From NCBI GenBank assembly GCA_934456295.1, contig CAKSHB010000002.1, positions 12,513 through 76,512 on the forward strand: a DNA stretch of 64,000 nt, in the 5' to 3' direction. Positions 1 through 54,264 of this stretch are shown piece after piece. Each line of letters starts with the position of its first letter. Positions within the stretch are counted from its first letter, which is position 1. Source of the DNA: an uncultured Clostridia bacterium. GTDB taxonomy: Bacteria > Bacillota > Clostridia > UBA1381 > UMGS1253. Position numbers and translations under genes: made by a program. Below the pieces are notes generated by a model. The model saw nothing but the letters and a program-made list of their open reading frames with translations. It was not told the DNA's origin and ran no database searches.

Positions 1-2078
1 GCAAGCCGGCTCTTGGCGTAGGTCCGGGAAACACACCGGCAATAATAGATGAAAGCGCCGACATAATCATGGCGGTAAGCTCGATTATTCATTCAAAAAC
101 CTTTGATAACGGCGTAATATGTGCCTCAGAGCAGTCGGTTATAGTGCCGGATACGATTTATGACGCAGTTAAAGCCGAGTTTGAAGAGCGCGGGTGTTAT
201 TTTCTAAGCCCGAAGGAAACGGAAATGGTGCGGAAAACTATAATCATAAACGGTTCGCTCAATGCAAAAATTGTCGGTCAGACAGCGCACACAATTGCAA
301 AGCTGGCAGGGATAGACGTGGCAGAAAGCACAAAAATACTGATAGGCGAGGTTGAGTCGGTCGATATATCCGAGGAATTTGCCCATGAAAAGCTTTCGCC
401 CGTACTTGCTATGTATAAAGCGAAAAATATCACCGACGCATTTGATAAGGCGCAGAGGCTTATTGAGGACGGCGGCTACGGACACACGTCATCAATATAT
501 CTGAACGCTTCTGAGGCAGGCGCAGTACTTGATGAATTTGCACGGCGTATGCAAACCTGCCGTATTCTTGTAAATACACCGTCCTCACAGGGCGGAATAG
601 GCGATTTGTATAACTTTAAGCTTGCTCCGTCGCTCACATTGGGCTGCGGCTCATGGGGAGGAAATTCAGTAAGCGATAATGTTGGCGTAATGAATCTTTT
701 AAACATTAAGACGGTTGCTGAAAGGAGAGAAAATATGCTTTGGTTCAGAGCGCCCGAAAAGATATATATGAAAAGAGGCTGTCTGCCGGCTGCGCTTGAT
801 GAATTAAAGCGTGTTATGGGCAAACAGAGAGCATTTATCGTAACTGACAGCTTTCTTTACAATAACGGCTATACAAAAGCCGTTACAGACCGGCTTGATG
901 AACTGGAAATACAGCATGCGGTGTTTTTTGACGTTGAACCCGATCCGACGCTTGCATGCGCAAGAGCCGGAGCAGAACGCATGAAATCCTTCCGCCCCGA
1001 CTGTATAATTGCGCTCGGCGGCGGTTCTGCGATGGACGCGGCAAAAATAATGTGGGTGCTCTATGAACACCCCGATGCCGATTTTATGGATATGGCAATG
1101 CGTTTTATAGACATAAGAAAAAGAGTGTATACCTTTCCGAAGATGGGAGAAAAAGCATATTTTACAGCAATACCGACATCTGCCGGCACAGGCTCGGAGG
1201 TTACGCCGTTTGCGGTCATAACCGATGAACAGACAGGTATAAAATATCCGCTGGCGGATTATGAGCTTCTGCCGAATATGGCGATTATCGACACAGATTT
1301 TCACATGTCTGCGCCGAAAGGGCTTACTGCGGCGTCGGGTATTGATGCTGCAACACATGCTCTGGAGGCATATGCGTCGATGCTTGCAACCGATTACACA
1401 GATTCTCTTGCACTCGGAGCGCTTAAAATTATATTTGAATATTTGCCGCGCGCATATGATAACGGCGAAAAAGACCCCGTTGCGCGTGAAAAAATGGCAA
1501 ATGCGGCAACTATGGCAGGTATGGCGTTTGCAAATGCATTTTTGGGTGTGTGCCATTCAATGGCGCATAAGCTCGGCGCGTTCTGTCATCTGCCGCACGG
1601 TGTTGCAAACGCGCTTATGATAGATGAAGTACTCAGATTTAACGCGAGCGAAGTGCCTGTAAAAATGGGAACATTTTCACAGTATGACCATCCGCACACG
1701 CTTGAGCGCTACGGTGAGATTGCAAAACACCTGGGGTTGGGCGGGGACAGTGATGAGGAACGGCTCGAAAAGCTTATAGAAGCGCTTGACGGGCTTAAAA
1801 GAAAGGTTGGAATTAAGGACACCATTAAAGCTTACGGCGTTGACGAGAAGGATTTTCTTGCAGGGCTTGATGAAATGACCGAGCAGGCGTTTGACGACCA
1901 GTGCACGGGCGCAAATCCCAGATATCCTCTTATGAGCGAGATAAGACAGATGTATCTTGACGCATATTACGGAAACGGGCATTTCGGCGATGAGCAAATG
2001 CCGAAATCGGAAACAGTTGTTCCGAAGGAAGATGCTGTCAAAAAGATTTACCGTAAAAAAGCAAACGAAAAACAGTAG
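1..2078 (+). CDS. adhE: bifunctional acetaldehyde-CoA/alcohol dehydrogenase AdhE (5' end cut by window edge)
   Basis: The reading frame is open from nt 3 (KPALGVGPGNTPAIIDESADI...). It covers the ALDH-domain C-terminus (FDNGVICASEQS) and a complete Fe-ADH domain (GGGSAMDAAK, HSMAHKLG), and ends in a Lys-rich tail. Confidence 0.93.
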   Translation, partial: KPALGVGPGNTPAIIDESADIIMAVSSIIHSKTFDNGVICASEQSVIVPDTIYDAVKAEFEERGCYFLSPKETEMVRKTIIINGSLNAKIVGQTAHTIAKLAGIDVAESTKILIGEVESVDISEEFAHEKLSPVLAMYKAKNITDAFDKAQRLIEDGGYGHTSSIYLNASEAGAVLDEFARRMQTCRILVNTPSSQGGIGDLYNFKLAPSLTLGCGSWGGNSVSDNVGVMNLLNIKTVAERRENMLWFRAPEKIYMKRGCLPAALDELKRVMGKQRAFIVTDSFLYNNGYTKAVTDRLDELEIQHAVFFDVEPDPTLACARAGAERMKSFRPDCIIALGGGSAMDAAKIMWVLYEHPDADFMDMAMRFIDIRKRVYTFPKMGEKAYFTAIPTSAGTGSEVTPFAVITDEQTGIKYPLADYELLPNMAIIDTDFHMSAPKGLTAASGIDAATHALEAYASMLATDYTDSLALGALKIIFEYLPRAYDNGEKDPVAREKMANAATMAGMAFANAFLGVCHSMAHKLGAFCHLPHGVANALMIDEVLRFNASEVPVKMGTFSQYDHPHTLERYGEIAKHLGLGGDSDEERLEKLIEALDGLKRKVGIKDTIKAYGVDEKDFLAGLDEMTEQAFDDQCTGANPRYPLMSEIRQMYLDAYYGNGHFGDEQMPKSETVVPKEDAVKKIYRKKANEKQ

Positions 2079-2099
2079 TGTGCGAGGAGGTAAGAAAAG

Positions 2100-2849
2100 A
2101 TGAAGCTTGACAGAGTAATTGCCGTAAGAAATAATAAAACGATATACCGTGACGGGGATTTGTGTGTGAAGGTATTTGACGGAGATTTTTCAAAAGCCGA
2201 TGTATTAAATGAGGCGCTTAACCAGGCGCGTATAGAGGAAACAGGGCTGAACGTGCCGAAGATAAAAGAAGTTATGACAATTGACGGCAAATGGGCGATA
2301 GTGTCCGAATATATTTCGGGAAAAACGCTTGCACAGCTTATGGCGGAAAATCCCGACAAAAAAGAGCAGTATATGAATTTGTTTGTTGATTTGCAGCTTG
2401 ATATGCATTCAAAAAAATGTCCGCTGTTAAACAAGCTGCGCGATAAGATGAACTCGAAGATAGATATGACAAATCTCGATGCGACAACGCGCTACGATTT
2501 GCATACAAGGCTTGAGGCAATGCCGTATCATTCAAAAGTGTGCCATGGGGATTTTAACCCGAGCAACATTATAATTACAGATGAAGGCAGAGAGTATATT
2601 TTAGACTGGTCGCATGCAACGCAGGGCAATGCTTCTGCCGACGCAGCGAGAACATACCTTCTGTTCTGGCTTGGGGGCGATATTGACAGTGCGGAAAAAT
2701 ATCTTGAGCTGTTTTGTAAAAAGAGCGATACGGCAAAACAGTATGTTCAGAAATGGATGCCGATAGTTGCCGCGTCACAGTCGGTAAAAGGGAATGAAAA
2801 AGAACGCGAGTTTCTGCTGTCATGGGTAGATGTTGTTGATTATCAATAG
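2100..2849 (+). CDS. APH/choline-kinase-like phosphotransferase (ePK fold) family protein
   Basis: 249 aa with the catalytic-loop motif CHGDFNPSNIII and a downstream ILDWS (Brenner/APH-type). GGAGG RBS; starts 21 nt after the adhE stop. Confidence 0.7.
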   Translation: MKLDRVIAVRNNKTIYRDGDLCVKVFDGDFSKADVLNEALNQARIEETGLNVPKIKEVMTIDGKWAIVSEYISGKTLAQLMAENPDKKEQYMNLFVDLQLDMHSKKCPLLNKLRDKMNSKIDMTNLDATTRYDLHTRLEAMPYHSKVCHGDFNPSNIIITDEGREYILDWSHATQGNASADAARTYLLFWLGGDIDSAEKYLELFCKKSDTAKQYVQKWMPIVAASQSVKGNEKEREFLLSWVDVVDYQ

Positions 2850-2908
2850 CCGAAAAGGCTGTAAATAAAAAATTAAAAGCTTGATATAAGCTGAAAGGAA
2901 GGTTTGTT

Positions 2909-3148
2909 ATGAAAATTACCGTGTGTATAGGGAGCTCATGTCATATAAAGGGCTCAAGGCAGGTTGTGGAGCAGCTTCAATACCTGATTGCAAAAAATGA
3001 ACTTAAAGATAAGGTGGACCTGGGCGGCACTTTCTGCATGGGAAAGTGCCAGGAGGGTGTCTGTGTTACGGTTGACGATGTATTTCATTCGGTATCGCCG
3101 GAAACCGTTGATGAATTTTTTGAAAAAGAGGTTATGGCAAAGCTGTAA
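2909..3148 (+). CDS. thioredoxin-like [2Fe-2S] ferredoxin (HfsA-like small protein)
   Basis: 79 aa with Cys pattern C-x4-C...C-x3-C (VCIGSSC ... FCMGKC), as in NuoE/HydC-type Trx-like ferredoxin domains. GGAAGG RBS. Confidence 0.75.
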   Translation: MKITVCIGSSCHIKGSRQVVEQLQYLIAKNELKDKVDLGGTFCMGKCQEGVCVTVDDVFHSVSPETVDEFFEKEVMAKL

Positions 3149-3248
3149 GACAGACGAAGGTTTTGAGTGTGTGAGAACTTTGACTGTATGAGATTTTGAC
3201 AGAAAAGATTGTGAGGGATATTTAAGAATACTGTATGAGAGAAAGGAT

Positions 3249-4934
3249 GTGACGAAGGTGCCGGATTGTCTTACACTGAAAAAATCAAACTGCAAAAACT
3301 GTTATAAGTGTATTCGCCACTGTCCCGTAAAATCAATACGCTTTTCGGGAAATCAGGCACACATAGTCGGAGATGAATGTGTTTTGTGCGGACATTGTTT
3401 TGTGGTCTGTCCGCAGAACGCCAAGCAGATTGTAAACGAAACAGAGAAGGTGCGCGTGCTGCTTCAGAGCGGCGACCCTGTGATAGTAAGTCTTGCGCCG
3501 TCATTTGTTGCAAACTATGACGGAGTGGGAATTGAATCAATGCGTGCGGCGCTGAAAAAGCTTGGTTTTTATGACGCGGAGGAAACGGCAGTCGGAGCGA
3601 CAATTGTTAAAAACGAGTATGAGCGTATGCTTAGAGAGGAGAATAGGAATATTATAATATCTTCATGCTGCCATTCGATAAATCTGCTTATACAGAAATA
3701 TTTTCCGTCAGAACTGCCGTATCTTGCTGATGTTGTTTCGCCGATGCAGGCACATTGCAGTGATATCAAAAAGAGATATCCGAATGCAAAAACTGTTTTT
3801 ATCGGGCCATGCGTTGCAAAAAAGGACGAGGCAGAGAGATATTATGGTATAGTTGATGCCGTGCTCACATTTGAGGAACTCACAAAATGGTTTGAGGACG
3901 AAAAAATTGAACCTGAAAAGATGATTGATAATTATGAGGAAAGCCGAGCAAGATTTTTCCCGACAACGGGCGGCATACTGAAAACCATGCGCGAAAGACT
4001 GCCGGAATATACATATATGGCGATTGACGGTATTGATAACTGTATTACCGCACTTAAAGATATTGAGGAAGGAAATATACATAACTGTTTTATTGAAATG
4101 TCGGCATGTACAGGGAGCTGTATAGGCGGTCCCGTTATGGAAAAATACCATCGCCTGCCTGTGCGCGATTATATGTCGGTTGCAAAATTTGCGGGCAATA
4201 AAGACTTTGACGTAAAACAGCCCGACGCACTTGAAGTGCACAAGAATTTTGAAATAATTAACCACAGACAGCAAATGCCGAGTGAGCAGGAAATACACGA
4301 TATTCTCAGACAAATGGGCAAAATGAAACCGTCGGACGAATTGAACTGCGGTTCATGCGGATATAACACATGCCGCGAAAAGGCTGTGGCAATATATCAG
4401 GGCAAAGCCGAAATATCGATGTGTCTGCCGTTTTTGAAGGATAAAGCAGAGAGCTTTTCCGACAATATTGTAAACAACACTCCAAACGGCATTATTGTTT
4501 TAAACGAGAAGCTGGAGGTGCAGCAGATAAATACGGCTGCCAGAAAAATTATGAATATACGCTCAAGCGGCGATGTTCTGGGCTCACAGGTTGTACGGAT
4601 ACTTGACCCGGGAATATTTGCCGAGGTTTTGCAGAGCGGAAGGGATATAAGAGATCACAGAACATATCTTGCGGAGTATGGAAAATATGTTGAGCAGACG
4701 GTTATCTATGACAGCGGCTACCGCTTGCTTATATGCATTATGCGTGATGTGACAGATGAGGAGAAGGCGCGCGAAAAGAAGGAACGCATAGGGCGCCAGA
4801 CGGTTGAAACGGCGGATAAGGTTGTGGATAAGCAAATGCGTATAGTTCAGGAGATTGCATCGCTTCTGGGCGAAACTGCCGCAGAAACAAAGATTGCGCT
4901 TTCAAAGCTGAAGGAGTCGATTTCTGATGAATAA
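3249..4934 (+). CDS. hydS: putative sensory [FeFe]-hydrogenase (HydS/HfsB-like, group C) with C-terminal PAS domain
   Basis: Contains two N-terminal 4Fe-4S ferredoxin motifs and an H-cluster domain (SSCCHS, GPCVAKKDE, EMSACTGSCIGG). These are followed by an extra Cx2Cx4Cx16C motif (CGSCGYNTC...C), a PAS-like region and a coiled-coil tail. The true start may be GTG 3258, which has better spacing to AAAGGA. Confidence 0.85.
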   Translation: MTKVPDCLTLKKSNCKNCYKCIRHCPVKSIRFSGNQAHIVGDECVLCGHCFVVCPQNAKQIVNETEKVRVLLQSGDPVIVSLAPSFVANYDGVGIESMRAALKKLGFYDAEETAVGATIVKNEYERMLREENRNIIISSCCHSINLLIQKYFPSELPYLADVVSPMQAHCSDIKKRYPNAKTVFIGPCVAKKDEAERYYGIVDAVLTFEELTKWFEDEKIEPEKMIDNYEESRARFFPTTGGILKTMRERLPEYTYMAIDGIDNCITALKDIEEGNIHNCFIEMSACTGSCIGGPVMEKYHRLPVRDYMSVAKFAGNKDFDVKQPDALEVHKNFEIINHRQQMPSEQEIHDILRQMGKMKPSDELNCGSCGYNTCREKAVAIYQGKAEISMCLPFLKDKAESFSDNIVNNTPNGIIVLNEKLEVQQINTAARKIMNIRSSGDVLGSQVVRILDPGIFAEVLQSGRDIRDHRTYLAEYGKYVEQTVIYDSGYRLLICIMRDVTDEEKAREKKERIGRQTVETADKVVDKQMRIVQEIASLLGETAAETKIALSKLKESISDE

Positions 4935-6099
4935 TTTATGTGCCGACATAGGCTACAAAAGCATAAACCACTATGGCGAGCAGCTTTGCGGCGACCATGT
5001 TGACATAGTTGAACAGGATGAAAATTCGTCGGTGATTGTTTTGGCGGACGGTCTGGGAAGCGGAGTAAAAGCAAGTATCCTTTCAACACTTACATCAAAA
5101 ATTATTTCCACAATGATGTCGGAAGGGCTTGCGCTTGAGGATTGCGTCGAAACGATAGCGATGGCTTTACCCGTATGCTCGGTGCGCGGAGTTGCGTATT
5201 CAACCTTCACGATTATTCATTTGATAAACAATGAAACGGCGGAGGTAATTCAGTACGATAACCCCATGCTGATTTTAATTCGTGACGGCAGCAATTATGA
5301 CTATCCGAAAACAGAGCTTAATATCGGCGGCAAAAAAATATATAAATCTTCAATAAGCCTTATGGAAAATGATATTTTTGTTGCAATGAGCGACGGCTGT
5401 CCGCATGCGGGGATTGGAATTGCATATAATTTCGGCTGGAAGCGCGAGGATATCATATCGTTTCTTGAGCCTATATCCATGGCAGGATATACGGCAAAAA
5501 CAATATCGACAATGCTGGTTGATGAATGTAACAAGCTCTATGGCGAAAGACCGGGAGATGACGCAACGGCATGCGTTGTGCGTGTGCGCAGGCGTGAACC
5601 GATGAATTTGCTGTTCGGTCCGCCGTCAAACCGCGATGACTGTGACCGTATGATGTCTTTGTTCTTCTCAAAGGAGGGCAAACATATCATATGCGGAGGA
5701 ACCACATCATCAATTGCGGCAAAATATCTGAGAAAGCCGCTCAGGGCAAGCTTGAATTTTGAACAGTCCGATGTGCCGCCGATTGCACATATTGACGGAG
5801 TTGATTTGGTAACGGAGGGCGTTATAACAATAAACAAAGTGCTTGAATACGCAAAGGATTATTTGCAGGATAACGAGAGCTATAAGCAGTGGAACTATAA
5901 AAAGGACGGAGCCTCGCTTATATGTCAGCTTTTGTTTGAGGAGGCAACGGATATAAACTTCTATGTTGGCCGTGCAATTAACCCTGCACATCAAAATCCG
6001 GAGCTTCCGATTAATTTCAATATTAAAATGAATTTGGTGAAAGAACTGTCGGAATGTCTTAAAATGATGGGAAAGCGAATTAAGATAAGCTATTTTTAA
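4927..6099 (+). CDS. PP2C/SpoIIE-family serine phosphatase with an uncharacterised C-terminal domain
   Basis: The N-terminal ~220 aa carry PP2C-type motifs (LADGLGSGVKASILS, MSDG, GDDATA). About 165 aa with no motif I recognise follow. The start overlaps the hydS stop by 8 nt. Confidence 0.8.
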   Translation: MNNLCADIGYKSINHYGEQLCGDHVDIVEQDENSSVIVLADGLGSGVKASILSTLTSKIISTMMSEGLALEDCVETIAMALPVCSVRGVAYSTFTIIHLINNETAEVIQYDNPMLILIRDGSNYDYPKTELNIGGKKIYKSSISLMENDIFVAMSDGCPHAGIGIAYNFGWKREDIISFLEPISMAGYTAKTISTMLVDECNKLYGERPGDDATACVVRVRRREPMNLLFGPPSNRDDCDRMMSLFFSKEGKHIICGGTTSSIAAKYLRKPLRASLNFEQSDVPPIAHIDGVDLVTEGVITINKVLEYAKDYLQDNESYKQWNYKKDGASLICQLLFEEATDINFYVGRAINPAHQNPELPINFNIKMNLVKELSECLKMMGKRIKISYF

Positions 6100-6132
6100 A
6101 TATGTTATTTATAAGATATAGGAGGACGGCAA

Positions 6133-7575
6133 ATGCGGAAGTTTGATACAAAGGTGCAGCACTTGAAATATAAGGTTCTGCGGGAGGTTGCAAGACAAGC
6201 CTGGAATAATTCGCTTACCGAAAACATACTTGATATTCCGAAAACGATTATACCCGGAAACACGCCGACAATGCGCTGCTGTGTATATAAAGAGAGGGCA
6301 ATCGTGGCAGAAAGGGTTAAACTGGCAATGGGCGGAAACAGGGAAAATCCGAACGTGATTGAGGTTATAGAGATTGCGTGCGATGAGTGTCCCGTCGGCG
6401 GATACGAGGTCACAAATGCTTGCCGCGGCTGTCTTGCGCACCGCTGTGAGGATGTATGCAGAAGAGGTGCCATTTCGTTTGACCACAACCATGTTGCGCA
6501 CATAGATAAAACAAAGTGTGTGGAGTGCGGAGCATGCGCAAAGGTGTGCCCGTATACGGCGATTGTGAGCCAGAAAAGACCTTGCCAGAATGCATGTAAA
6601 ATCAAGGCGATTGAGATGAATGAGAACAAGGCGGCAAAGATTGACAATGATAAATGCATATCGTGCGGAGCATGCGTATATCAGTGCCCGTTCGGCGCAA
6701 TTATGGATAAATCCTACATACTTGATGTTATTGATTTGCTTAAAGACGCTCTGAAGTCAAAAAATGAGGACGGTGGCGAAAAAACGAAGCTTTATGCCGT
6801 GGTTGCACCATCGATATCAAGCCAGTTTCGCTATGCAAAGCTCGGACAGGTCATAACGGGGCTTAAAGAGCTTGGTTTTCACACTGTAATCGAGGCGGCG
6901 CTCGGCGCTGACATGGTTGCACATGCCGAGTCGAAGGAGCTTGCCGAAAAAGGCTTTCTGACAAGTTCGTGCTGTCCGGCGTTTGTGAGCTATATCGAGA
7001 AAAAATTTCCCGAACTGACGCCTTTTATATCGCACAATCTTTCACCGATGGCAACGATTTCAAAATATATAAAAGAAACAACGAAAAACGCAAAAGTTGT
7101 ATTTATCGGACCTTGTACGGCAAAAAAAGCCGAGGTGCAGAAAGACGAAGTGAAACCTTATGTTGATGCGGCGCTTACCTTTGAGGAATTGCAGGCATTG
7201 TTTGACAGCCGCGATATTGATATAACAACGCTCGGCGAGGGCGTTTTGGATAACGCTTCATATTTCGGCAGAATATTTGCGCGCTGCGGCGGACTTGCCG
7301 ATGCTGTTGCGGAAGGTCTGAAGGAACAGGGGATAGACGATTTTGACCTGAAGGCGGTTTCATGTGACGGCATAGAGCAGTGCAGAACGGCGCTGCTGAA
7401 AAAAAGCAGAAATGTGCTCGATGCCAACTTTATTGAGGGAATGGCATGCACGGGCGGCTGTATAGGCGGCGCAGGATGCCTTACGCACGGAGAGAAAAAT
7501 AAAGCCGAAGTTGATAAATACGGCAAAGAGGCGCTTGAAAAAACCATATCCGATGCGATATCGGTTCTGAAATAA
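6133..7575 (+). CDS. monomeric [FeFe]-hydrogenase (group B-like architecture; HfsD/HydA2 analogue)
   Basis: Cys-rich N-terminus (MRCCVYKERA, CDECP, CRGC..C), two 4Fe-4S ferredoxin motifs and H-cluster motifs TSSCCPAF, GPCTAKKAE and EGMACTGGCIGG. GGAGG RBS. Confidence 0.85.
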   Translation: MRKFDTKVQHLKYKVLREVARQAWNNSLTENILDIPKTIIPGNTPTMRCCVYKERAIVAERVKLAMGGNRENPNVIEVIEIACDECPVGGYEVTNACRGCLAHRCEDVCRRGAISFDHNHVAHIDKTKCVECGACAKVCPYTAIVSQKRPCQNACKIKAIEMNENKAAKIDNDKCISCGACVYQCPFGAIMDKSYILDVIDLLKDALKSKNEDGGEKTKLYAVVAPSISSQFRYAKLGQVITGLKELGFHTVIEAALGADMVAHAESKELAEKGFLTSSCCPAFVSYIEKKFPELTPFISHNLSPMATISKYIKETTKNAKVVFIGPCTAKKAEVQKDEVKPYVDAALTFEELQALFDSRDIDITTLGEGVLDNASYFGRIFARCGGLADAVAEGLKEQGIDDFDLKAVSCDGIEQCRTALLKKSRNVLDANFIEGMACTGGCIGGAGCLTHGEKNKAEVDKYGKEALEKTISDAISVLK

Positions 7576-7599
7576 AAACATATAAAAAACGGATTAACT

Positions 7600-7633
7600 A
7601 TAGCCGCCGGTTCAGCCTGCGGCTATGATTTTT
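7600..7633 (+). terminator. rho-independent terminator after the hydrogenase gene
   Basis: Perfect 8-bp stem ATAGCCGC/GCGGCTAT with an 11-nt loop, followed by GATTTTT. Confidence 0.7.
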
Positions 7634-7728
7634 ATAAATATTTTGTTTATCACAAATTTTTTCGTGCATTTTTAGGCATTATATGATATTATATAAATTA
7701 TACAATCTTTTTTGCGAAAGGACTGACT

Positions 7729-8658
7729 TTGTTAATGTACGATACGATAATTATAGGCGGAGGTCCGGCAGGACTGAACGCCGCACTGTACAGCATGCGC
7801 AGCGGTATGAAAACACTTCTTGCCGAAAAGCTTTTCTGCGGCGGACAGGCGGCAACGACCTATGAGGTTGAAAACTATATAGGCTTTCCCGAGCCGATTT
7901 CGGGACCTGAGCTTGTTATGAATATGGAAAAACAAGTAAGGCGTTTCGGAGTGGAAATAGTAAACATACCTGTTGTTTCGCTCGGCTTTGGGGATAAAAT
8001 TAAAACAGTTTCTTTTGCCGATGGGAAAACATATGAAACAAAAACCGTAATCATATGTACCGGCGCAGCGCCGCGCACACTCGGGCTTGAAGGCGAGGAC
8101 GCGCTGCGCGGTGCGGGTGTTTCGTATTGCGCGACATGTGACGGGGCATTTTACAGGGGGAAAAATGTTGCCGTGATAGGCGGCGGCGATACGGCTCTTG
8201 AGGACGCATTATTTCTTGCAAATCTGTGCAAAGAGGTCTATCTTGTTCACAGACGTGACAGCTTCCGTGCGGCGAAGGTTCTTTGCGATAAAGCTGTTTC
8301 AAATGAGAAAATAAAAGTTATTTACGATACCGTTGCCGAAAATATCGGAATAAATTCGGACGGCATGGTAGACTTTCTTGACTTAAAAAATGTAAAAACC
8401 GGCGAAAAACAGACTGTGTTTGTATCGGGGATTTTTGTGGCAGTAGGGACAAAAGCCGAAAACGGGCTTTTCAAAGATAAGCTGCAATGTGACGAAAGCG
8501 GTTACATCATAACCGATGAAACGATGAAAACGAGTGTTGAGGGCGTATATGCTGCTGGCGACATACGCAAAAAACCGCTTCGCCAGATTATAACCGCAGC
8601 AGCGGACGGTGCAGTTGCGGCAAACTCGGCGGCATCATTTGTCATGAGTTTGTCATAA
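7729..8658 (+). CDS. trxB: thioredoxin-disulfide reductase
   Basis: GGGPAG FAD motif, redox-active CATC, GGGDTA NADPH motif and HRRD. ATG 7735 is an alternative start. Confidence 0.92.
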   Translation: MLMYDTIIIGGGPAGLNAALYSMRSGMKTLLAEKLFCGGQAATTYEVENYIGFPEPISGPELVMNMEKQVRRFGVEIVNIPVVSLGFGDKIKTVSFADGKTYETKTVIICTGAAPRTLGLEGEDALRGAGVSYCATCDGAFYRGKNVAVIGGGDTALEDALFLANLCKEVYLVHRRDSFRAAKVLCDKAVSNEKIKVIYDTVAENIGINSDGMVDFLDLKNVKTGEKQTVFVSGIFVAVGTKAENGLFKDKLQCDESGYIITDETMKTSVEGVYAAGDIRKKPLRQIITAAADGAVAANSAASFVMSLS

Positions 8659-8677
8659 TGTCTGCCGCGTGATGTAT

Positions 8678-8706
8678 TTGCAATTTTTTTACTTTTGTGT
8701 TATACT
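8678..8706 (+). promoter_or_regulatory. sigma-A-like promoter upstream of PBP1A gene
   Basis: TTGCAA, 17 nt, TATACT, with TGT immediately upstream of the -10 (extended -10). Confidence 0.45.
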
Positions 8707-8746
8707 GTGAAAAAGGATTTCTGTCTTGCACAAAGGAGGCTTTTTT

Positions 8747-10984
8747 GTGAGTAAAGGACTAAAAATATTTCTTAAGCTGTTTTTGGGGGCATTTCTTGTC
8801 GGAGCTTTGCTGGTTGCGGCGCTTGTAATTGCAGGCTGCTTCGGCTTTTTCGGCATGGATAAGGACTTTGATGTGAACGCTCTTGATTTAAACTTTACAT
8901 CTGTTATTTATTACGTAGATGATAACGGAGAGGCTCATGAGCTTGAACGTCTTTATAAATCCCAAAACAGAGTGTGGGCAGATATAAGCAAAATACCGAA
9001 GCATTTGCAGGACGCATTTGTGGCTATTGAAGATGAACGCTTTTATAACCATAACGGCGTAGACCTTCCGCGTACCATTAAGGCTACCGCTACCTATATT
9101 TTTCAGGGCGGAAGCTCTTTCGGCGGCTCTACGATAACGCAGCAGCTTGTAAAAAATATTACGAATGATAAAGATGTGCGACCCGACCGTAAAATACGCG
9201 AGATGTGGCGCGCTATGGAGATTGAGCGGAAATATTCAAAAGAGCAAATTCTTGAACTGTACCTTAACACGATATACCTTGCGAATAACTGTAACGGTGT
9301 GCAGGCGGCGGCAAACAAATATTTCGGCAAAGACGTGAGCGAGCTTTCGCTTGCGGAATGTGCCTCAATTGCGGGAATTACCCAGTATCCGTCAAAATAT
9401 GACCCGCTTGCAAATCCTGACAGCAATATAGAAAAACAGCGAGTTGTTCTGAAGAAAATGCTTGAACTTGAAAAAATTTCGCAGGAGGAGTATGACGCTG
9501 CGGTTGCCGAAAAGCTTGCATTTTCCGACCATGCGCTGAAAACAGACGGACATGTTCAGTCATATTTCATAGACCAGCTCATAAATGACCTTATTGCGGA
9601 TTTTCAGAAGAAAAAGGGATATTCTGCCGAATTTGCAGAAAAAACCATATACAACAGCGGTCTGAAAATATATGCCACAATAGACCCGACTGTTCAGAAG
9701 GCAATGGAAAATGTTTATGAAAATACAGCAAACTTCCCCGGCATGTCGGGCAAGACAACACCGCAGTCATCAATGGTGGTGCTTGATCCGCACACAGGCG
9801 GCATAAAGGGGATTGTCGGCGGCATCGGGAAAAAGAGCGGCGACAGAATACTTAACCGTGCGTCACAGACATACCGCCAGCCCGGTTCTACAATAAAACC
9901 GCTCGCAGTGTATGCGCCGGCAATCGAGCAGGGAAAGCTTATGCCTTCAACAATCGTTGAGGACGCACCTATAGACATAAACGGATGGAAACCGACAAAC
10001 TATTACAGCGGCTACAAAGGCAAGGTTACTGCGCGTACTGCTCTGAAGGAGTCGATGAATACACCTGCGGTACGCGTACTGCAAGATGTCGGCGTTGACT
10101 ATTCGTATGATTTTCTTACAAAAAAACTCGGGTTTACCTCGCTTGTTAGCGGCGAAACGCGAAACGGAAACAGATATTCGGACAAAAACCTCAGTTCCCT
10201 TGCTCTCGGCGGTCTTACGGACGGCATGAGCGCGACACAGATGGCTGCGGCATATGCAACTTTTGCAAACAACGGTTTATATAACAAGCCTCATTCGTAT
10301 ACAAGAGTTGTAAACAGTTCGGGAAAAATCGTCCTCGAAAATAACGATGAGCCGAGCGTGGCAATGAGCGAATCAACGGCATATCTGACAAATACAATGC
10401 TTCAGAGCGTTATAAAGAACGGTACGGGTACTGCGGCAAAGCTTGCAAGCAATATGCCTGCCGGAGGAAAAACCGGTACGACTGATGAACAGAATGACAG
10501 ATGGTTTGCCGGATTTACATCGTATTATGTCGGCGTTGTTTGGTACGGATATGACCAGCCGAAGTCGCTGGAGTTTCTGACATATCATCCGTGCATGCCG
10601 ATATGGAAAAAAGTCATGGATGCAATTCACACAAATCTGCCGGTTAAGGATTTTATCATGCCCAATACCGTGGAAACGGCGAAGGTATGCTCTGTTACGG
10701 GCAAGCTTGCTTCGGCCGGATGCCCGACTGCGGACGAATATTTCAAGGTCGGGAAAAAGCCGTCGTCATACTGTTCGGGACACGGAGGAACTCAGCCGGC
10801 ACCTGAGATAAAGGAAAGTCCAAATCCCTCGTCGGAGCCGACTTCGACTCCTTCAACAGCCGCTCCCGAAAATCCGGCGGCGCCAAATCCGACATCAACG
10901 CCTAACACAAAACCTACGGCAGTACCTATTCCGACGCATACGCCGACACCCGGTAAGGGTGACGATGTTATTGTAATTGAGTAA
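8747..10984 (+). CDS. class A penicillin-binding protein (PBP1A; transglycosylase/transpeptidase) with Pro/Thr-rich C-terminal tail
   Basis: GT51 motifs (EDERFYNHNGVD, GGSTITQQL, RKIRE), transpeptidase motifs (STIKP, SMN, KTGTT) and an N-terminal TM helix. Start placed at GTG 8747, 7 nt after AAAGGAGG; the ORF is open from 8726. Confidence 0.92.
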   Translation: MSKGLKIFLKLFLGAFLVGALLVAALVIAGCFGFFGMDKDFDVNALDLNFTSVIYYVDDNGEAHELERLYKSQNRVWADISKIPKHLQDAFVAIEDERFYNHNGVDLPRTIKATATYIFQGGSSFGGSTITQQLVKNITNDKDVRPDRKIREMWRAMEIERKYSKEQILELYLNTIYLANNCNGVQAAANKYFGKDVSELSLAECASIAGITQYPSKYDPLANPDSNIEKQRVVLKKMLELEKISQEEYDAAVAEKLAFSDHALKTDGHVQSYFIDQLINDLIADFQKKKGYSAEFAEKTIYNSGLKIYATIDPTVQKAMENVYENTANFPGMSGKTTPQSSMVVLDPHTGGIKGIVGGIGKKSGDRILNRASQTYRQPGSTIKPLAVYAPAIEQGKLMPSTIVEDAPIDINGWKPTNYYSGYKGKVTARTALKESMNTPAVRVLQDVGVDYSYDFLTKKLGFTSLVSGETRNGNRYSDKNLSSLALGGLTDGMSATQMAAAYATFANNGLYNKPHSYTRVVNSSGKIVLENNDEPSVAMSESTAYLTNTMLQSVIKNGTGTAAKLASNMPAGGKTGTTDEQNDRWFAGFTSYYVGVVWYGYDQPKSLEFLTYHPCMPIWKKVMDAIHTNLPVKDFIMPNTVETAKVCSVTGKLASAGCPTADEYFKVGKKPSSYCSGHGGTQPAPEIKESPNPSSEPTSTPSTAAPENPAAPNPTSTPNTKPTAVPIPTHTPTPGKGDDVIVIE

Positions 10985-30042: not shown

Positions 30043-31356
30043 TTGGAAAAGACATATTTTCATTCTGTAACGCTTGATAAAGATAAATGCATGGGTTGTA
30101 CAAACTGTCTGAAACGCTGTCCGACTGAGGCAATACGTGTGCGCAGCGGCAAAGCTCGGATTATAAAAGAAAGGTGCATTGACTGCGGAGAATGTATACG
30201 GGTCTGTCCGTATCATGCAAAAAAAGCTGTCACAGACCCTTTTGCAAAAACGGAAGAATATAAATATAAAATTGCGCTTCCGGCACCGAGTTTGTACGGA
30301 CAGTTTAATCAGCTTGATGATATAAACATAGTATTAAACGGATTGAAGAAAATAGGATTTGACGATGTGTATGAAGTCGCACGTGCGGCAGAAATTGTCA
30401 CAATTGCTTCAAAGGATTTTATTTTTAAAAAAAAGCTTCAGTATCCGATAATTTCGTCGGCATGTCCTGCCGTTGTGAGGCTGATACGTGTCAGATTTCC
30501 GAATTTGATAAAAAATCTGCTGCCGGTGCTTTCTCCGATGGAAGTTGCGGCAAAGCTTGCAAAAAAAGAGGCACAGAAGAAAACAGGACTTTCTCTTGAT
30601 GAAATAGGAGCATTTTTTATAACACCGTGTGCGGCGAAAATGACTGTCATAAAAGACCCGCTCGGTCAGGAAAAATCATATGTTGACGGTGCGATATCCA
30701 TGTCGGATATATATATGCGGCTTGTCAGTGCGATGAGCAAGGTTGATAATCCCGAAAACCTTGTGCGCTCGGGGCTTAAGGGCGTAGGCTGGGCGAGCAG
30801 CGGCGGTGAGGCATACGCTTTGGGAAAAGATGAGTACATAGCGGTAGACGGTATCGATAATGTTATAAAAGTGTTTGAGGGGCTTGAGGACGAACAGTTT
30901 CATAATATAAAATTTATTGAGGCGGGCGCATGCGTCGGGGGCTGTGTCGGAGGTCCGCTGGCTGTTGAGAACGGATTTGTTGCGGAAACAAAAATTAAGC
31001 TTCTTACAAAAATGCTTACCAGTTATGAGATGGAAAAAGCGTTTCCTTGTATAGATATGGAGGATGTAAGTTTTACTAAAGATATAGAGTATATTCCGGT
31101 AATGAAGCTTGACAGCGATATTTCGGAGGCAATGAAAAAGATGGAACGGCTTGAAAGAATATATAATTCAATGCCGAAAATAGATTGCGGCAGCTGCGGA
31201 GCGCCGTCATGCCGTGCACTTGCCGAAGATATTGTGCGCGGCTTCGGAAAAGAGATGGACTGTGTGCATAAATTGCGTGAACGAGTGTTTTCACTGGCAA
31301 AAGAAATGGTTGAAATACAGGAAAATATAACATTGTCCGAAAAAGGCGGCAAATAA
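30043..31356 (+). CDS. HydS-like [FeFe]-hydrogenase-domain protein without PAS/output domain
   Basis: Two 4Fe-4S motifs; H-cluster-domain motifs SSACPAV, TPCAAK and EAGACVGGCVGG; and a C-terminal Cx2Cx4Cx16C (CGSCGAPSC...C). TTG start. Confidence 0.8.
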   Translation: MEKTYFHSVTLDKDKCMGCTNCLKRCPTEAIRVRSGKARIIKERCIDCGECIRVCPYHAKKAVTDPFAKTEEYKYKIALPAPSLYGQFNQLDDINIVLNGLKKIGFDDVYEVARAAEIVTIASKDFIFKKKLQYPIISSACPAVVRLIRVRFPNLIKNLLPVLSPMEVAAKLAKKEAQKKTGLSLDEIGAFFITPCAAKMTVIKDPLGQEKSYVDGAISMSDIYMRLVSAMSKVDNPENLVRSGLKGVGWASSGGEAYALGKDEYIAVDGIDNVIKVFEGLEDEQFHNIKFIEAGACVGGCVGGPLAVENGFVAETKIKLLTKMLTSYEMEKAFPCIDMEDVSFTKDIEYIPVMKLDSDISEAMKKMERLERIYNSMPKIDCGSCGAPSCRALAEDIVRGFGKEMDCVHKLRERVFSLAKEMVEIQENITLSEKGGK

Positions 31357-31373
31357 GAAAAAGGGGTGGAAAT

Positions 31374-31700
31374 ATGACGGCGAAACAGCTTGCAAAGGAG
31401 CTTGAACTGACCGCACTTACAGACTGCGGCGATGATAAAGAAGTTGACGGCTGTTATATATGTGATTTGCTGAGTTATGTAATGAGTCATGCATCAAAGG
31501 GGAATGTGTGGATTACCGTGCAAACAAATATAAACGTTGTTGCCGTGGCTTCTCTGACGGAGGTCAGCTGTGTTATAATCCCCGAAAATATTGTAGTTGA
31601 GGATATCACGCTGAAGAAGGCTGCTGCTGAAAATATCACATTCTTTTCTTCGCAGCATACAGCATATGAGCTTGCCGGAAAGCTTTCGGAAATTATTTAA
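31374..31700 (+). CDS. DRTGG domain protein (second copy)
   Basis: 108 aa with the same domain layout as 29187-29537. GGGGTGG RBS. Confidence 0.6.
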   Translation: MTAKQLAKELELTALTDCGDDKEVDGCYICDLLSYVMSHASKGNVWITVQTNINVVAVASLTEVSCVIIPENIVVEDITLKKAAAENITFFSSQHTAYELAGKLSEII

Positions 31701-31720
31701 ACAGCGGGGAAGGTTTAAAT

Positions 31721-32446
31721 ATGAGATATTATTATGACTTCCACATACATTCATGTCTTTCGCCGTGCGGCGATGATGATATGACACCGAATAACATAGT
31801 AAACATGTCAATCTTGAAAGGGCTTGATATAATTGCCCTGACAGATCATAACTGCGCTGCAAATATTCCGGCTGTTTTAAAATGTGCCAAAGGCAGAATT
31901 ACTGTTTTATGCGGCATGGAAATTGAGAGCTGCGAAGAAGTTCATATGATATGTCTTTTTGACGAATGGAATAAATGCAGAAAGATGTGGGAGATTGTTC
32001 ATGCCGAGATGAATCCAATAAAAAATGATGCTGAAATTTTCGGCGAGCAGCTGATAATGAATGAAAATGATGAGATATCGGGAAAGATAGATAATTTGCT
32101 GGTTACCGCAACGCGCATGTCGGTATATGATATATGCAGAAGAGTACATGAAATGGGCGGAGTGTGCATAGCGGCACATGTGGATAAAAGCTCGTACAGT
32201 ATTTTATCGAACTTAGGTTTTATTCCCGATGACCTGAACATAGACTGTATTGAGATATCGCGCAGAGGAGATTGCGATAGCTTGTTTTCATCGAACGAAT
32301 ATCTGAAAAAATACATGGCTTTGTTCTCATCGGATGCACATTATTTGGAGGATATTTCAGAGAGAGAAAATTTTATGGAGATCGACGAAAATGTACATTT
32401 GAGCGCAAAATCGGTAGTTGAATTTCTCAAAAGAGAAAAACAATGA
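31721..32446 (+). CDS. PHP-domain phosphoesterase
   Basis: N-terminal YDFHIHSCLSPCGD, LTDHN and C-terminal SDAH metal-binding motifs typical of PHP. Confidence 0.8.
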   Translation: MRYYYDFHIHSCLSPCGDDDMTPNNIVNMSILKGLDIIALTDHNCAANIPAVLKCAKGRITVLCGMEIESCEEVHMICLFDEWNKCRKMWEIVHAEMNPIKNDAEIFGEQLIMNENDEISGKIDNLLVTATRMSVYDICRRVHEMGGVCIAAHVDKSSYSILSNLGFIPDDLNIDCIEISRRGDCDSLFSSNEYLKKYMALFSSDAHYLEDISERENFMEIDENVHLSAKSVVEFLKREKQ

Positions 32447-32514
32447 AAAAATATAAAAAACGAAAAAATTTTTTGAAAAAATTTGAGAAAATTGTAGATT
32501 TTTATAAATTAAAG

Positions 32515-32523
32515 TGATACAAT
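32515..32523 (+). promoter_or_regulatory. candidate extended -10 element (TGATACAAT) upstream of hydC
   Basis: TGnTACAAT preceded by phased A-tracts (GAAAAAATT x2 and GAGAAAATT, 32462-32493). No good -35. Confidence 0.35.
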
Positions 32524-32548
32524 ATTACCCGATGTGTTATTAAAATGA

Positions 32549-32566
32549 TTGTTAAATTTGTAACAA
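32549..32566. promoter_or_regulatory. candidate Rex (redox-sensing repressor) operator
   Basis: TTGTTAA-ATTT-GTAACAA has 1 mismatch to the clostridial Rex consensus TTGTTAAnnnnTTAACAA. It lies 86 nt upstream of the hydC start. Confidence 0.55.
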
Positions 32567-32577
32567 TGTGACAGCGT

Positions 32578-32598
32578 ATGATATTAATATGATATTAA
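32578..32598 (+). repeat. tandem 10-nt direct repeat ATGATATTAA-T-ATGATATTAA in hydC leader
   Basis: Read directly from the sequence. Each copy resembles an extended -10 (TGATATTAA). Confidence 0.6.
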
Positions 32599-32651
32599 AC
32601 CGTATGTACTACTTTTGCGGTTAAAATATAAATAACGTAGGAGGACCTAAA

Positions 32652-33140
32652 ATGAGTGAGAAAAAAGCAAGTACCTTTAAGGGTACAAAGCAGCAGGAGG
32701 AGCAGCTTTTGCAGGTTATTGAAAACCACAAAGGTCAGCCGGGAGCACTGATGCCGATACTTCAGGAGGCTCAGGAAATTTACGGTTATCTTCCGCTTGA
32801 AGTGCAGCAGATTATTGCTGAGAAAACAGGCATTACAATGGCTGAAATTTACGGTGTTGTAACATTTTACGCACAGTTTTCGCTTTATCCGAAGGGCGAG
32901 TACAAAATTGCAGTCTGTCTTGGTACGGCATGCTATGTAAAGGGTTCGGGAGATATTCTCGAGCGCATTAAGCAGCGCCTTGGGGTTGAAGTCGGACAGT
33001 GCAGTGCCGACGGAAAGTATTCACTTGACGCAACAAGATGTATCGGCGCATGCGGACTTGCTCCGGTATTGACTGTAAACGATGAGGTTTACGGCAGACT
33101 TACCGTAGATGATGTAGACGGTATTCTGGCGAAATATTGA
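32652..33140 (+). CDS. hydC: NuoE-like [2Fe-2S] subunit of NAD(P)-linked/bifurcating [FeFe]-hydrogenase (HydC/HndA)
   Basis: LPILQEAQ...GYL, CLGTACYVKGS and CIGACGLAP motifs. AGGAGG RBS. Confidence 0.9.
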   Translation: MSEKKASTFKGTKQQEEQLLQVIENHKGQPGALMPILQEAQEIYGYLPLEVQQIIAEKTGITMAEIYGVVTFYAQFSLYPKGEYKIAVCLGTACYVKGSGDILERIKQRLGVEVGQCSADGKYSLDATRCIGACGLAPVLTVNDEVYGRLTVDDVDGILAKY

Positions 33141-33144
33141 TACC

Positions 33145-33693
33145 ATGCAGGAATTATCGCTGCATATACTTGACATAGCTCAGAATTCGGTCGCGGCAAA
33201 AGCATCGCTGATAGAAATTGTTATTGATGAAAATGAGGCAAATGATACTCTCGATATAACAATCAGGGATAACGGCTGCGGAATGGACGAGGAAAAAGTA
33301 AAGAAAGTGCTTGACCCGTTTTATACAACAAGAACGACAAGAAAAGTCGGGCTTGGAGTACCGATGTATCGCGAGGCGGCGGTTTCGACAGGCGGAGATT
33401 TCAGGATTGAGAGCGTTGTCGGGGAAGGCACGGCGGTGTTTGCGCGTTTTGGTTATTCGCATATAGACAGACAGCCTATGGGCGATATCGGCAGTGTTAT
33501 ACATATTTTGATAACGGGAAATCCCGATATCGATTTTGTGTACAGGCATACGGTAAACGGCAGACAATTTGAGCTTGATACCCGCGAAATAAAAAAAATT
33601 CTCGGCGGTGTTCAGGTTTCCGATATGAGCGTCGGTATATGGCTTAAAGAATATATCAGTGAAGGAATTTCAAATTTATACGGAGGTGTTTAG
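33145..33693 (+). CDS. GHKL/histidine-kinase-like ATPase domain protein embedded in the hydrogenase operon
   Basis: N-box (LDIAQNS), G1 (DNGCGM) and G2 (GLGVPM). No DHp or phospho-acceptor His domain. Confidence 0.75.
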   Translation: MQELSLHILDIAQNSVAAKASLIEIVIDENEANDTLDITIRDNGCGMDEEKVKKVLDPFYTTRTTRKVGLGVPMYREAAVSTGGDFRIESVVGEGTAVFARFGYSHIDRQPMGDIGSVIHILITGNPDIDFVYRHTVNGRQFELDTREIKKILGGVQVSDMSVGIWLKEYISEGISNLYGGV

Positions 33694-33696
33694 ATA

Positions 33697-34068
33697 ATGA
33701 AATCATTGGAGGAATTGGCGGCTATAAGAGAAAAGGCTTTGAGCAGTATCCATATGCGCCATGACAGAATGGACGGCATAAGAATTGTTGTCGGCATGGC
33801 AACATGCGGTATAGCAGCAGGTGCACGTCCCGTACTCAATGCATTTGTTGAGGAGGTTGGCAAAAGAAAGCTTACAGATGTTGTGGTTACACAAACAGGC
33901 TGCATAGGTATGTGCCGTCTTGAGCCTATCGTTGAGGTTTACATGCCCGGCAAAGAAAAGGTTACATATGTAAAGCTTGATGCTGATAAAGCACGTAAGA
34001 TTGTTTCTGACCATATTGTGAACGGCAAGATTTGTACAGAGTATACAATCGGTGAGGCTGACAAGTAA
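33697..34068 (+). CDS. thioredoxin-like [2Fe-2S] ferredoxin (HndB/HydD-like)
   Basis: 123 aa with the MATCGIAAGA ... GCIGMCRLEP pattern. GGAGG RBS. Confidence 0.8.
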   Translation: MKSLEELAAIREKALSSIHMRHDRMDGIRIVVGMATCGIAAGARPVLNAFVEEVGKRKLTDVVVTQTGCIGMCRLEPIVEVYMPGKEKVTYVKLDADKARKIVSDHIVNGKICTEYTIGEADK

Positions 34069-34126
34069 TATAAAAACAAGATATTATTCAAAAGCGTTTA
34101 AATAAAACAGAGGAGGACACAGAAAT

Positions 34127-35920: not shown

Positions 35921-35944
35921 AACGTCGGAAGGGAGAAAAGATAA

Positions 35945-52382: not shown

Positions 52383-52418
52383 AAAAACGGCTTGGTTTTT
52401 TAGACCGAGCCGTTTTTT
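52383..52418. terminator. bidirectional rho-independent terminator (aspS / ytxC convergent)
   Basis: ACGGCTTGGT/ACCGAGCCGT 10-bp stem, flanked by an A-run on the 5' side and a T-run on the 3' side. Confidence 0.75.
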
Positions 52419-54249: not shown

Positions 54250-54264
54250 AAAGGTTGTTTAAAA

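Follow-up and report, generated by a model that had tools for sequence, protein, structure and literature searches.

What decides whether electrons leave a fermenting cell as H2 or as ethanol? The choice governs interspecies hydrogen transfer in guts and rumens, hence methane output, and the ethanol yield of engineered thermophiles, and it is raised anew by one end of a 64,000-nt stretch of DNA from an uncultured Clostridia bacterium (assembly GCA_934456295.1, contig CAKSHB010000002.1, positions 12,513 to 76,512), which as a whole is called the window here. At its left edge lie, in a row, genes for an acetaldehyde-CoA/alcohol dehydrogenase that is bifunctional (adhE), an APH-fold kinase, a thioredoxin-like (Trx-like) 2Fe-2S protein (FeS), a putative H2-sensing [FeFe] hydrogenase (HydS), a PP2C phosphatase and a monomeric hydrogenase (HydA). 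An earlier note on this DNA, made from the sequence alone, had suggested that the block is a self-contained switch between H2 and ethanol as electron sinks. We consider it rather probable that the block is instead a Rex-gated operon carrying a phospho-switch of HydS-PP2C and kinase, whose target is no obvious STAS or DNA-binding protein of the block.

Open reading frames (ORFs), Pfam and TIGR04105 place six co-directional genes on the forward strand of positions 1-7636, in the order just given and with the identities that the earlier note had assigned (Table 1). Its list of intergenic gaps was likewise accurate: 21, 59, 100 or 109, -8 and 33 nt, the third value depending on the start of hydS. 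The in-frame GTG at 3249 lies only 1-2 nt past an AGGA ribosome-binding site, whereas the start at 3258, used in public gene calls, is better placed, and we therefore prefer the 109-nt value. The block ends in a hairpin (7599-7627; centroid -17.9 kcal/mol, z = -2.4 versus shuffles) followed by the T-run ATTTTTAT, which a stock terminator scanner missed because of one stem mismatch and a dedicated hairpin-plus-T-run scan recovered. It is the only hairpin with a T-run in the block, as had been claimed for 7600-7633, and neither scan found a hairpin-plus-T-run terminator in the four internal gaps. At the Rfam gathering threshold, no riboswitch or leader RNA was found in the window or in L001, a public contig described below. 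From the lack of an internal terminator, and from spacing that is kept across relatives, we infer that a single transcript may run from adhE through the hydrogenase gene.

The linkage of adhE to the sensor genes, which match the hfs genes of Thermoanaerobacterium saccharolyticum and whose survey across genomes had been proposed as a check, was followed in two ways. When genomes were scanned with a HydS alignment, relatives turned up in at least 568 species, and the best 80 (74-80% identity) were analysed; a kinase-anchored metagenome scan found at least 538 stretches with a close kinase relative. In the 80 analysed loci the arrangement FeS (one or two copies)-HydS-PP2C-HydA is near-universal, median gaps across the species are 18, 19, 4, 5, -8 and 13 nt, and 41 of 57 loci have a terminator-like element after hydA, few such elements being internal. 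Among the 49 species loci whose upstream sequence reaches far enough, adhE and the kinase gene precede the sensor genes in 28, the kinase gene does so without adhE in 8, and neither is present in 13; Monoglobus also carries FeS-HydS-PP2C-HydA without adhE or kinase. When the kinase served as the anchor, adhE lay next to it on the upstream side in 63 of 66 informative loci and FeS(-FeS)-HydS came next in 71 of 77. These neighbour counts make the kinase gene a hinge that joins an adhE module to a sensor module and stays with adhE. Four loci (L130, L160, L164 and L170) contain the adhE-kinase pair, whether or not lysR is present, and have no FeS or HydS genes in the first 3-8 kb downstream; the pair is thus able to occur in the absence of the sensor.

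The earlier note had offered the physical linkage of adhE and sensor as an inference, and it is real. It is not, however, an inference specific to this window: the link has been published for Ruminococcus albus and Acetivibrio thermocellus, and R. albus, the note's own reference organism, carries the same linked cluster on plasmid pRUMAL01.

The window cuts adhE, and the upstream region was read from public metagenome contigs. An identical kinase protein occurs on ten of these, two of which (L001 and L002) match the window at 100% identity along 12.8 kb; in L001 the complete adhE occupies 7274-9979 and encodes 901 aa. Upstream of it, L001 carries a spoIIIA operon, Asp23, purine nucleoside phosphorylase, adenosine deaminase, a bidirectional terminator and a 341-nt gap, and the spoIIIA operon marks the host as an uncultured spore-former. 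At L001 7151, outside the window and 123 nt upstream of adhE, stands a Rex box, ATGTTAATTTTTTAACAG, that differs from the Rex consensus TTGTTAANNNNTTAACAA by two mismatches, both at the outermost positions. That consensus has been validated for Clostridia Rex by DNA affinity purification sequencing (DAP-seq) and EMSA (electrophoretic mobility shift assay), and the canonical box is the one bound by housekeeping Rex. In addition, L001 has a near-consensus sigma-70 extended -10 promoter, TTGACT-17-(TG)TATAAT, at 6999-7027, about 245 nt upstream of adhE. It precedes the Rex box and a degenerate remnant of the palindrome region described next, both of which would therefore lie within a long leader if the promoter is real.

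Cis elements were compared across 69 clusters (survey loci L007 and L010-L089, the window genome as L001, and two Acetivibrio loci, L090 and L091), 14 of them adhE-first and 25 rex-first. With up to two mismatches to the consensus allowed, a canonical Rex box was called in 13 of the 14 adhE-first clusters, in 3 of the 25 rex-first clusters and in 1% of random 250-nt segments. Conversely, a 10-bp palindrome, ATATCGATAT, stands in 2-4 copies upstream of 21 of the 25 rex-first clusters versus 6 of the 44 others (Fisher p = 8e-9; background 3.5%; for example L007 4276-4308, L090 3855-3910 and L091 3815-3838), although both sets of counts overstate independence because the sequences are related. 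A. thermocellus has four near-identical palindromes at 14-nt spacing just 3′ of a consensus promoter, and A. cellulolyticus has palindromes too. Such clusters encode a divergent Rex paralogue that shares 34-36% identity with characterised Rex proteins. The palindromes may be the operator of this cluster-borne, Rex_1799-type regulator. We therefore infer two alternative regulatory heads, the window having the rex-less one, served in trans by housekeeping Rex.

An interpretation of the upstream dyad as a LysR-type transcriptional regulator (LTTR) box was dropped: the palindrome follows the rex-first clusters, including Acetivibrio and three lysR-less loci, and does not follow lysR. A co-directional LysR-family gene does lie directly upstream in 37 of 66 related clusters (for example L007 3273-4205), with its own terminator in R. 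albus, the only genome checked for one; the literature on the cluster, as far as covered, does not treat LysR as part of the system.

The term self-contained is accordingly not supported. By Pfam, DNA-binding, STAS and GHKL (HATPase_c) domains are absent from all six block proteins, leaving no obvious STAS or DNA-binding protein as an output target within the block; the Rex operator lies outside the window, and relatives carry rex and/or lysR.

The sensory module begins with the 2Fe-2S protein, which carries the ligand motif C-x4-C ... C-x3-C and matches the first R. albus copy, of two, at 80% identity; in most relatives the gene is a tandem pair, and the window has a single copy. HydS comprises two N-terminal [4Fe-4S] sites, an H-cluster domain with its ligands, a C-terminal four-Cys cluster, a PAS domain and an invariant C-terminal helix, the build of group C as distinguished from group D in PMC13104023. 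C138, C185, C284, C288, C364, C367, C372 and C389 are invariant in the alignment. The H-cluster motifs read SSCCHS, GPCVAKKDE and EMSACTGSC, such that the equivalents of CpI M353 and M497 are Gly (IGPC) and Ser (EMSAC); this agrees with the sensory second-sphere signature and residue frequencies, in which M353 becomes Gly, Ser or Thr and M497 is not Met (PMC10055695). The equivalent of CpI C299 is retained as Cys (SSCC), a position that varies within the sensory class and is Ala in TmHydS of Thermotoga maritima (PMC10055695). On these features HydS is placed in the sensory clade as a putative sensor. Its nearest matches come from Oscillospiraceae/Acutalibacteraceae-type metagenome-assembled genomes, and a protein search of plasmids gave about 72% (71.5%) identity to R. 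albus HydS. The last ~30 residues (window 4840-4931), KQMR.VQEIASLLGETTAETKI.L..LK, are near-invariant even in a 39%-identical homologue and much more conserved than the preceding PAS domain, which suggests a docking helix.

The phosphatase gene overlaps hydS by 8 nt, as it does in 75 of 75 relatives, and its translation is probably coupled to that of hydS. The PP2C domain (residues 1-222) keeps the family catalytic motifs, which are invariant in the alignment, and the AlphaFold2 (AF2) model of the phosphatase, with a pLDDT (predicted local distance difference test) score of 86, matched SpoIIE, RsbU and RsbX in Foldseek (5mqh, 3pu9, 5ucg and 3w40; E 1e-13 to 1e-11). It is followed by an alpha/beta domain of ~165 aa (about residues 224-390; window 5596-6099) with an invariant loop, HIVCGGTTS. 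This domain has no Pfam match even at E 10, and a PDB profile search gave only E 0.038-0.15, including a weak SIS-like match to the phosphate-binding region of GmhA (E 0.15). It matches 1083 clusters at 50% identity, some of them apparently stand-alone proteins of ~160 aa that also fall in no Pfam family.

The kinase has intact catalytic motifs (HGDFNPSN and IDW), family motifs that are invariant in the alignment, and 71-74% identity to its R. albus and Acetivibrio orthologues. Its AF2 model (pLDDT 83) lies nearest to APH(3′), choline, fructosamine and CotI-type kinases, with APH(3′) the top Foldseek match at a template modelling (TM) score of ~0.6. The HRDxKxxN loop and activation segment of Hanks-type kinases are absent, the HGDFNPSN loop resembling instead that of APH, RIO and Bud32 proteins, and the Pkinase match of 20.6 bits falls under the cut-off of 31.7. 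That this enzyme is a protein kinase, as the earlier note took it to be, is thus unproven, the fold being nearest to small-molecule APH kinases.

The two enzymes at the ends of the block are the presumptive electron outlets. The hydrogenase scores 571.6 bits against TIGR04105 (curated cut-off 450; residues 4-452), which assigns it to group B; it is 76% identical to R. albus HydA2 and presumed to be ferredoxin-dependent. AdhE has the Pfam domains Aldedh, Fe-ADH and ADH_Fe_C, and is 73% identical to its R. albus counterpart. Most adhE-bearing relatives share a C-terminal tail of ~35 aa after ...AYYGKHF (L001 9870-9979, equal to window 1969-2078). The tail is semi-conserved as ...MPT..D....DAVK..YRKGKKA (C-termini of L010-L084 compared), is missing in A. 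thermocellus and four relatives (L011, L044, L059 and L079), and could be a docking or modification site.

The sequence establishes which genes these are, their orthology, an order and spacing that are conserved, and the operator; on this footing we propose a scheme in which a single transcript, Rex control, a direction of signalling and a target would combine as follows. The operon would install a high-H2 mode of fermentation, with AdhE as an NADH sink and the group B hydrogenase as a ferredoxin-only outlet for H2. In a first layer, suggested by the upstream sequence, the promoter ahead of adhE would be controlled through its Rex operator; as that operator is canonical, expression should rise with NADH/NAD+, a ratio expected to climb when accumulated H2 blocks an NADH-dependent bifurcating hydrogenase. 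In a second layer, suggested by gene order and published genetics, HydS would bind H2 at a tuned, low-activity H-cluster and control the PP2C encoded by the overlapping gene through its PAS domain and invariant C-terminal helix, with the APH-fold kinase opposing PP2C on a shared target. HydS would restrain PP2C until H2 is present, and PP2C activity would favour adhE expression or activity.

Deletion phenotypes in other species are consistent with this direction of signalling. In T. saccharolyticum and Clostridium thermocellum, deletion of hfsB (Clo1313_1795 in C. thermocellum) raises ethanol and removal of the full hfs operon does not. In T. saccharolyticum, deletion of hfsA acts like that of hfsB, the adhE transcript is up 2-3 fold, and single hfsC or hfsD deletions leave ethanol at the wild-type level. 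A HydS that restrains PP2C until H2 is sensed fits these results. For R. albus, Greening et al. 2019 (PMC6776011) reported that the eight-gene cluster was 111-fold down in co-culture with an H2 consumer and proposed that the sensor induces both enzymes at high H2.

Several observations weigh against our proposal. No direct demonstration of H2 sensing by any HydS was found in the literature searched, and the C-terminal cluster of the group D sensor TamHydS is described in PMC13104023 as unresponsive to H2. The kinase fold is nearest to kinases of small molecules. A tblastn search of 72 kb (L001 1-7901 and the 64-kb window) found no homologue of rex or lysR, and Rex control here therefore relies on a regulator outside that stretch. 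The promoter-like site inside the kinase gene and the atypical gap ahead of hydS could allow separate expression of the sensor genes, and Rex alone could explain H2-dependent co-regulation, with no transcriptional role for HydS. The literature searched held no test of the phosphatase or the kinase, and neither word occurs in a text-searched 2026 paper on sensory hydrogenases; the statement in the earlier note that the signalling mechanism is still to be worked out stands after this check.

The main rival explanation builds on the objection that Rex alone could suffice. Here Rex alone drives H2-dependent transcription through NADH/NAD+, and the HydS-PP2C-kinase system acts directly and post-translationally on AdhE and/or the hydrogenase; phosphorylation of AdhE, for example, may alter its alcohol dehydrogenase activity or filament state. 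We regard this as credible, if somewhat unlikely. The position of the kinase gene directly 3′ of adhE in nearly all informative metagenome loci, and the four adhE-kinase loci without sensor, favour AdhE as the target, and the two ORFs even overlap in A. thermocellus (4 nt) and A. cellulolyticus (1 nt). Between the window and A. thermocellus, kinase identity (74%) is nearer to that of AdhE (80%) than to that of HydS (56%) or PP2C (59%), FeS being at 61%. Moreover, the T. saccharolyticum hfs mutants had raised NADH-dependent alcohol dehydrogenase activity and unchanged aldehyde dehydrogenase activity, from which the authors inferred post-transcriptional control, and 13 of the 14 adhE-first clusters have a canonical Rex box. 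Set against these points, the kinase gene accompanies the sensor genes without adhE in 8 of the 49 species loci, the adhE transcript rose 2-3 fold when hfsA or hfsB was deleted, nothing was found to show that AdhE is phosphorylated, and the T. saccharolyticum hfs operon is described without a kinase, and adhE (tsac_0416) with another neighbour, tsac_0415. In a narrower form, which we find decidedly doubtful, the kinase and the HydS-coupled PP2C make up an H2-gated phospho-switch on AdhE itself, for example on its clade-specific, basic C-terminal tail. Transcription would then be left to Rex, either the housekeeping protein at the canonical box, as in the window, or the divergent paralogue at ATATCGATAT palindromes. 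If true, this would give the cell a rapid valve, working after translation, that directs electrons to H2 or to ethanol as sinks.

A Rex-gated operon presupposes one transcript, and it is conceivable, albeit unlikely, that there are two, with adhE (and the kinase gene) and FeS-hydS-PP2C-hydA on separate promoters and adjacent through a shared regulon. The modules do occur apart, the sensor genes lacking adhE and kinase in 13 of 49 species and in Monoglobus, and adhE-kinase standing alone in four loci. In the window, the gaps of 59 and 109 nt exceed the relatives' medians of 19 and 5 nt, the longer one falling where relatives have a second 2Fe-2S gene. The fold of this 109-nt gap is no better than shuffles (z = +1.06), however, and the scan called neither a promoter nor a terminator in it; a hidden promoter there was considered and rejected, the best candidate being a weak TTGACA-17-TATTTA that the scan did not call. 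The remaining signals are the promoter-like match TTGACA-17-AATAAT at 2107-2135 and the hairpin after the kinase stop. The -10 hexamer of the former is encoded by Asn-Asn codons and is not conserved in orthologues, three other aligned ones having NT or TD there, and the count of promoter-like matches overall is not above the shuffled expectation; the match is probably due to chance. The hairpin (fold of 2840-2915: -13.7 kcal/mol, z = -2.3), called by neither terminator scan, is not an intrinsic terminator because its tail is A-rich rather than U-rich, and could be an RNA processing or stability element. No internal hairpin-plus-T-run terminator separates the two modules, and the entire orthologous cluster shifts together in the transcriptomes of R. 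albus and C. thermocellum.

Could HydS be an enzyme subunit rather than a sensor? Under this explanation HydS is the redox subunit of a multi-subunit Hfs hydrogenase (FeS, HydS and HydA) whose activity is tuned by PP2C and the kinase, and adhE rides as a passenger in a redox operon. The first work on the hfs operon identified it as encoding the main H2-producing hydrogenase of T. saccharolyticum (PMC11837493), but deletion of hfsB raised hydrogenase activity without slowing growth, and single hfs deletions differ in phenotype from deletion of the whole operon. The proton-relay cysteine (SSCC), lost in TmHydS, is kept in HydS, and sensory hydrogenases are still measurably active (PMC10055695); nevertheless, the M353-to-Gly and M497-to-Ser replacements, together with the PAS domain, match the low-activity sensory class. 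The behaviour of the TamHydS cluster noted above also favours a subunit. Acetivibrio has this sensor head next to a different, trimeric hydrogenase, which argues for a portable regulator over a fixed subunit, and we judge the subunit explanation very unlikely. Least probable of all is that the APH-fold protein phosphorylates a small molecule, the product or a phosphosugar being read by the C-terminal domain of PP2C so that metabolite and H2 signals are combined: the structural matches to aminoglycoside, choline and fructosamine kinases, the invariant strand-GGTTS-helix loop with the GmhA SIS region as its sole sequence similarity and the lack of a STAS-type protein substrate encoded nearby speak for it, but the SIS match falls short of significance (E 0.15), similar motifs occur in RIO, Bud32 and CotI-type proteins, which are protein kinases or ATPases, the very strong conservation of the kinase over its entire surface points to protein partners, and no candidate metabolite was identified.

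A second hydrogenase locus lies at 30043-37690 of the window and includes a group D, M2e-like sensory hydrogenase and an A3-type HydA (Table 1). Each of the two hydrogenases of this genome thus has a putative sensor of its own, and Rex boxes stand ahead of both loci. Further along, at about 52400-54500, the GC skew changes sign and gene orientation turns from + to - at ~52.4 kb, adjoining a low-GC stretch (0.29-0.35). This flip may mark a replication terminus or a point of strand switching; near it, a search for dif sites gave one match with three mismatches, equalled by 12 of 100 shuffles, and none that was convincing.

Table 1. Features of the adhE-hydA block and of the second hydrogenase locus, in window coordinates.
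Feature	Position	Strand	Remarks
adhE, 3′ 692 codons, bifunctional acetaldehyde-CoA/alcohol dehydrogenase	1..2078 (frame 3, bases 3-2078)	+	cut by left window edge
APH-fold (eukaryotic-like) kinase, 249 aa	2100..2849	+	Pfam APH, E 1.8e-11
Promoter-like TTGACA-17-AATAAT	2107..2135	+	within kinase ORF; sole candidate internal promoter
Hairpin 3′ of kinase stop	2840..2868 (6-bp stem 2846-2862)	+	A-rich tail, no T-run
Trx-like [2Fe-2S] protein, 79 aa, hfsA position	2909..3148	+	PF01257, E 3e-8
Long gap ahead of hydS	3149..3257	+	position of second 2Fe-2S gene in relatives
HydS, putative H2-sensing [FeFe] hydrogenase, M2f / group C	3258..4934	+	Fer4, Fe_hyd_lg_C, PF04060, PAS
PP2C (SpoIIE/RsbU-type) Ser/Thr phosphatase with C-terminal alpha/beta domain	4927..6099	+	PF07228 SpoIIE
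Monomeric group B [FeFe] hydrogenase (HydA2/HfsD type), 480 aa	6133..7575	+	TIGR04105
Intrinsic terminator ending block	7599-7636	+	stem 10/11 bp, loop 5 nt, then ATTTTTAT
Sensory-type [FeFe] hydrogenase, group D / M2e-like	30043-31356		C-terminal 4-Cys cluster, no PAS
PHP-domain protein	31721-32446
Near-perfect Rex box TTGTTAAATTTGTAACAA	32549
NuoE-like gene	32652-33140
HATPase_c gene	33145-33693
NuoF-like gene	34127-35920
A3-type HydA with small-subunit domain	35945-37690

The cluster is the best candidate device for the decision between H2 and ethanol. The copy in the window adds no experimental handle beyond those of R. albus or the tractable C. thermocellum; the comparative results narrow the search for a mechanism in that the linkage is very common, the kinase gene is a hinge, there are apparently two alternative regulatory heads and the block does not encode the output of the sensor.

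How the block relates to known systems can be stated in some detail. Recognised since 2014 (Zheng et al. 2014, as cited in later papers), the cluster on pRUMAL01 of R. albus 7 comprises lysR, rex, adhE, a phosphotransferase (the kinase), two FeS genes, hydS, an overlapping SpoIIE-type PP2C gene and hydA2. From adhE to hydA2 it has the same genes in the same order as the window, with proteins 72-80% identical, the same 8-nt overlap of hydS and the PP2C gene, and the same monomeric hydrogenase. The differences lie mainly at the front: the window has no rex directly upstream, the gene that heads the R. albus eight-gene cluster, and no lysR nearby, and shows a canonical Rex box where R. albus has ATATCGATAT palindromes upstream of rex (RUMAL_RS17350). 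Such a lack of a leading rex is a common variation, 14 of the 69 clusters beginning with adhE. There is one 2Fe-2S gene rather than two, 109 nt rather than ~10 nt precede hydS, and a chromosome-like contig of a spore-former takes the place of a plasmid of a non-sporulating rumen coccus. In A. thermocellus (Cthe_0422-0430 / Clo1313_1799-1791, with hfs as Clo1313_1796-1793), rex-adhE-kinase-FeS-hydS-PP2C follow one another in the same order and with the same overlap, and Cthe_0422-0432 has been reported as a co-regulated redox region. This cluster has its own divergent Rex paralogue (Clo1313_1799), its kinase is Clo1313_1797 by gene order and its PP2C Clo1313_1794, and in both A. thermocellus and A. 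cellulolyticus a NuoE/NuoF/HydA trimer lies downstream in place of the group B monomer.

The hfsABCD operon of T. saccharolyticum (Shaw 2009; Eminoglu 2017) consists of a small gene followed by those for a PAS hydrogenase (HfsB), a Ser phosphatase (HfsC) and a HydA2-like ferredoxin hydrogenase (HfsD) (PMC11837493). The earlier note had matched the last four genes of the block to this layout, and the match holds for the order and domains of HfsB, HfsC and HfsD. At the hfsA position, A. thermocellus has a Trx-like 2Fe-2S protein (Clo1313_1796 by gene order), as does the window; HfsA of T. saccharolyticum, known from its description only, aligns poorly with known proteins (PMC11837493). The four-gene operon as described also differs from the block in having neither the kinase gene nor adhE beside it. 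TmHydS (group C, M2f) shares with HydS the domain architecture and both second-sphere replacements, differing in the C299 equivalent; in the window, the PP2C gene overlaps the 3′ end of hydS.

More distant systems resemble the block in logic. In HoxBC-HoxJ-HoxA of Ralstonia/Cupriavidus, a low-activity hydrogenase likewise senses H2 and controls hydrogenase genes via phosphorylation, but the likeness is one of idea: that system uses an [NiFe] hydrogenase, a histidine kinase and a response regulator as its known output, whereas the window encodes an [FeFe] hydrogenase, a PP2C and an APH-fold kinase, and the proteins are unrelated. Partner-switching modules (RsbU/RsbV/RsbW; SpoIIE/SpoIIAA/SpoIIAB) also pair a SpoIIE/RsbU-type PP2C with an opposing kinase, but that kinase has the GHKL rather than the APH fold, and the block encodes no STAS substrate, sigma factor or anti-sigma factor; it is not a member of this family, even if it may work in a similar way. 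Judged by its sequence, the block, carried by a spore-forming Clostridia bacterium of gut or rumen, is orthologous both to aad-hydS-hydA2 of R. albus and to A. thermocellus Cthe_0423-0427. The link between adhE and the sensor is already published for these relatives, to which the window adds minor variations, namely the lack of rex and lysR, a single FeS gene and a canonical Rex box.

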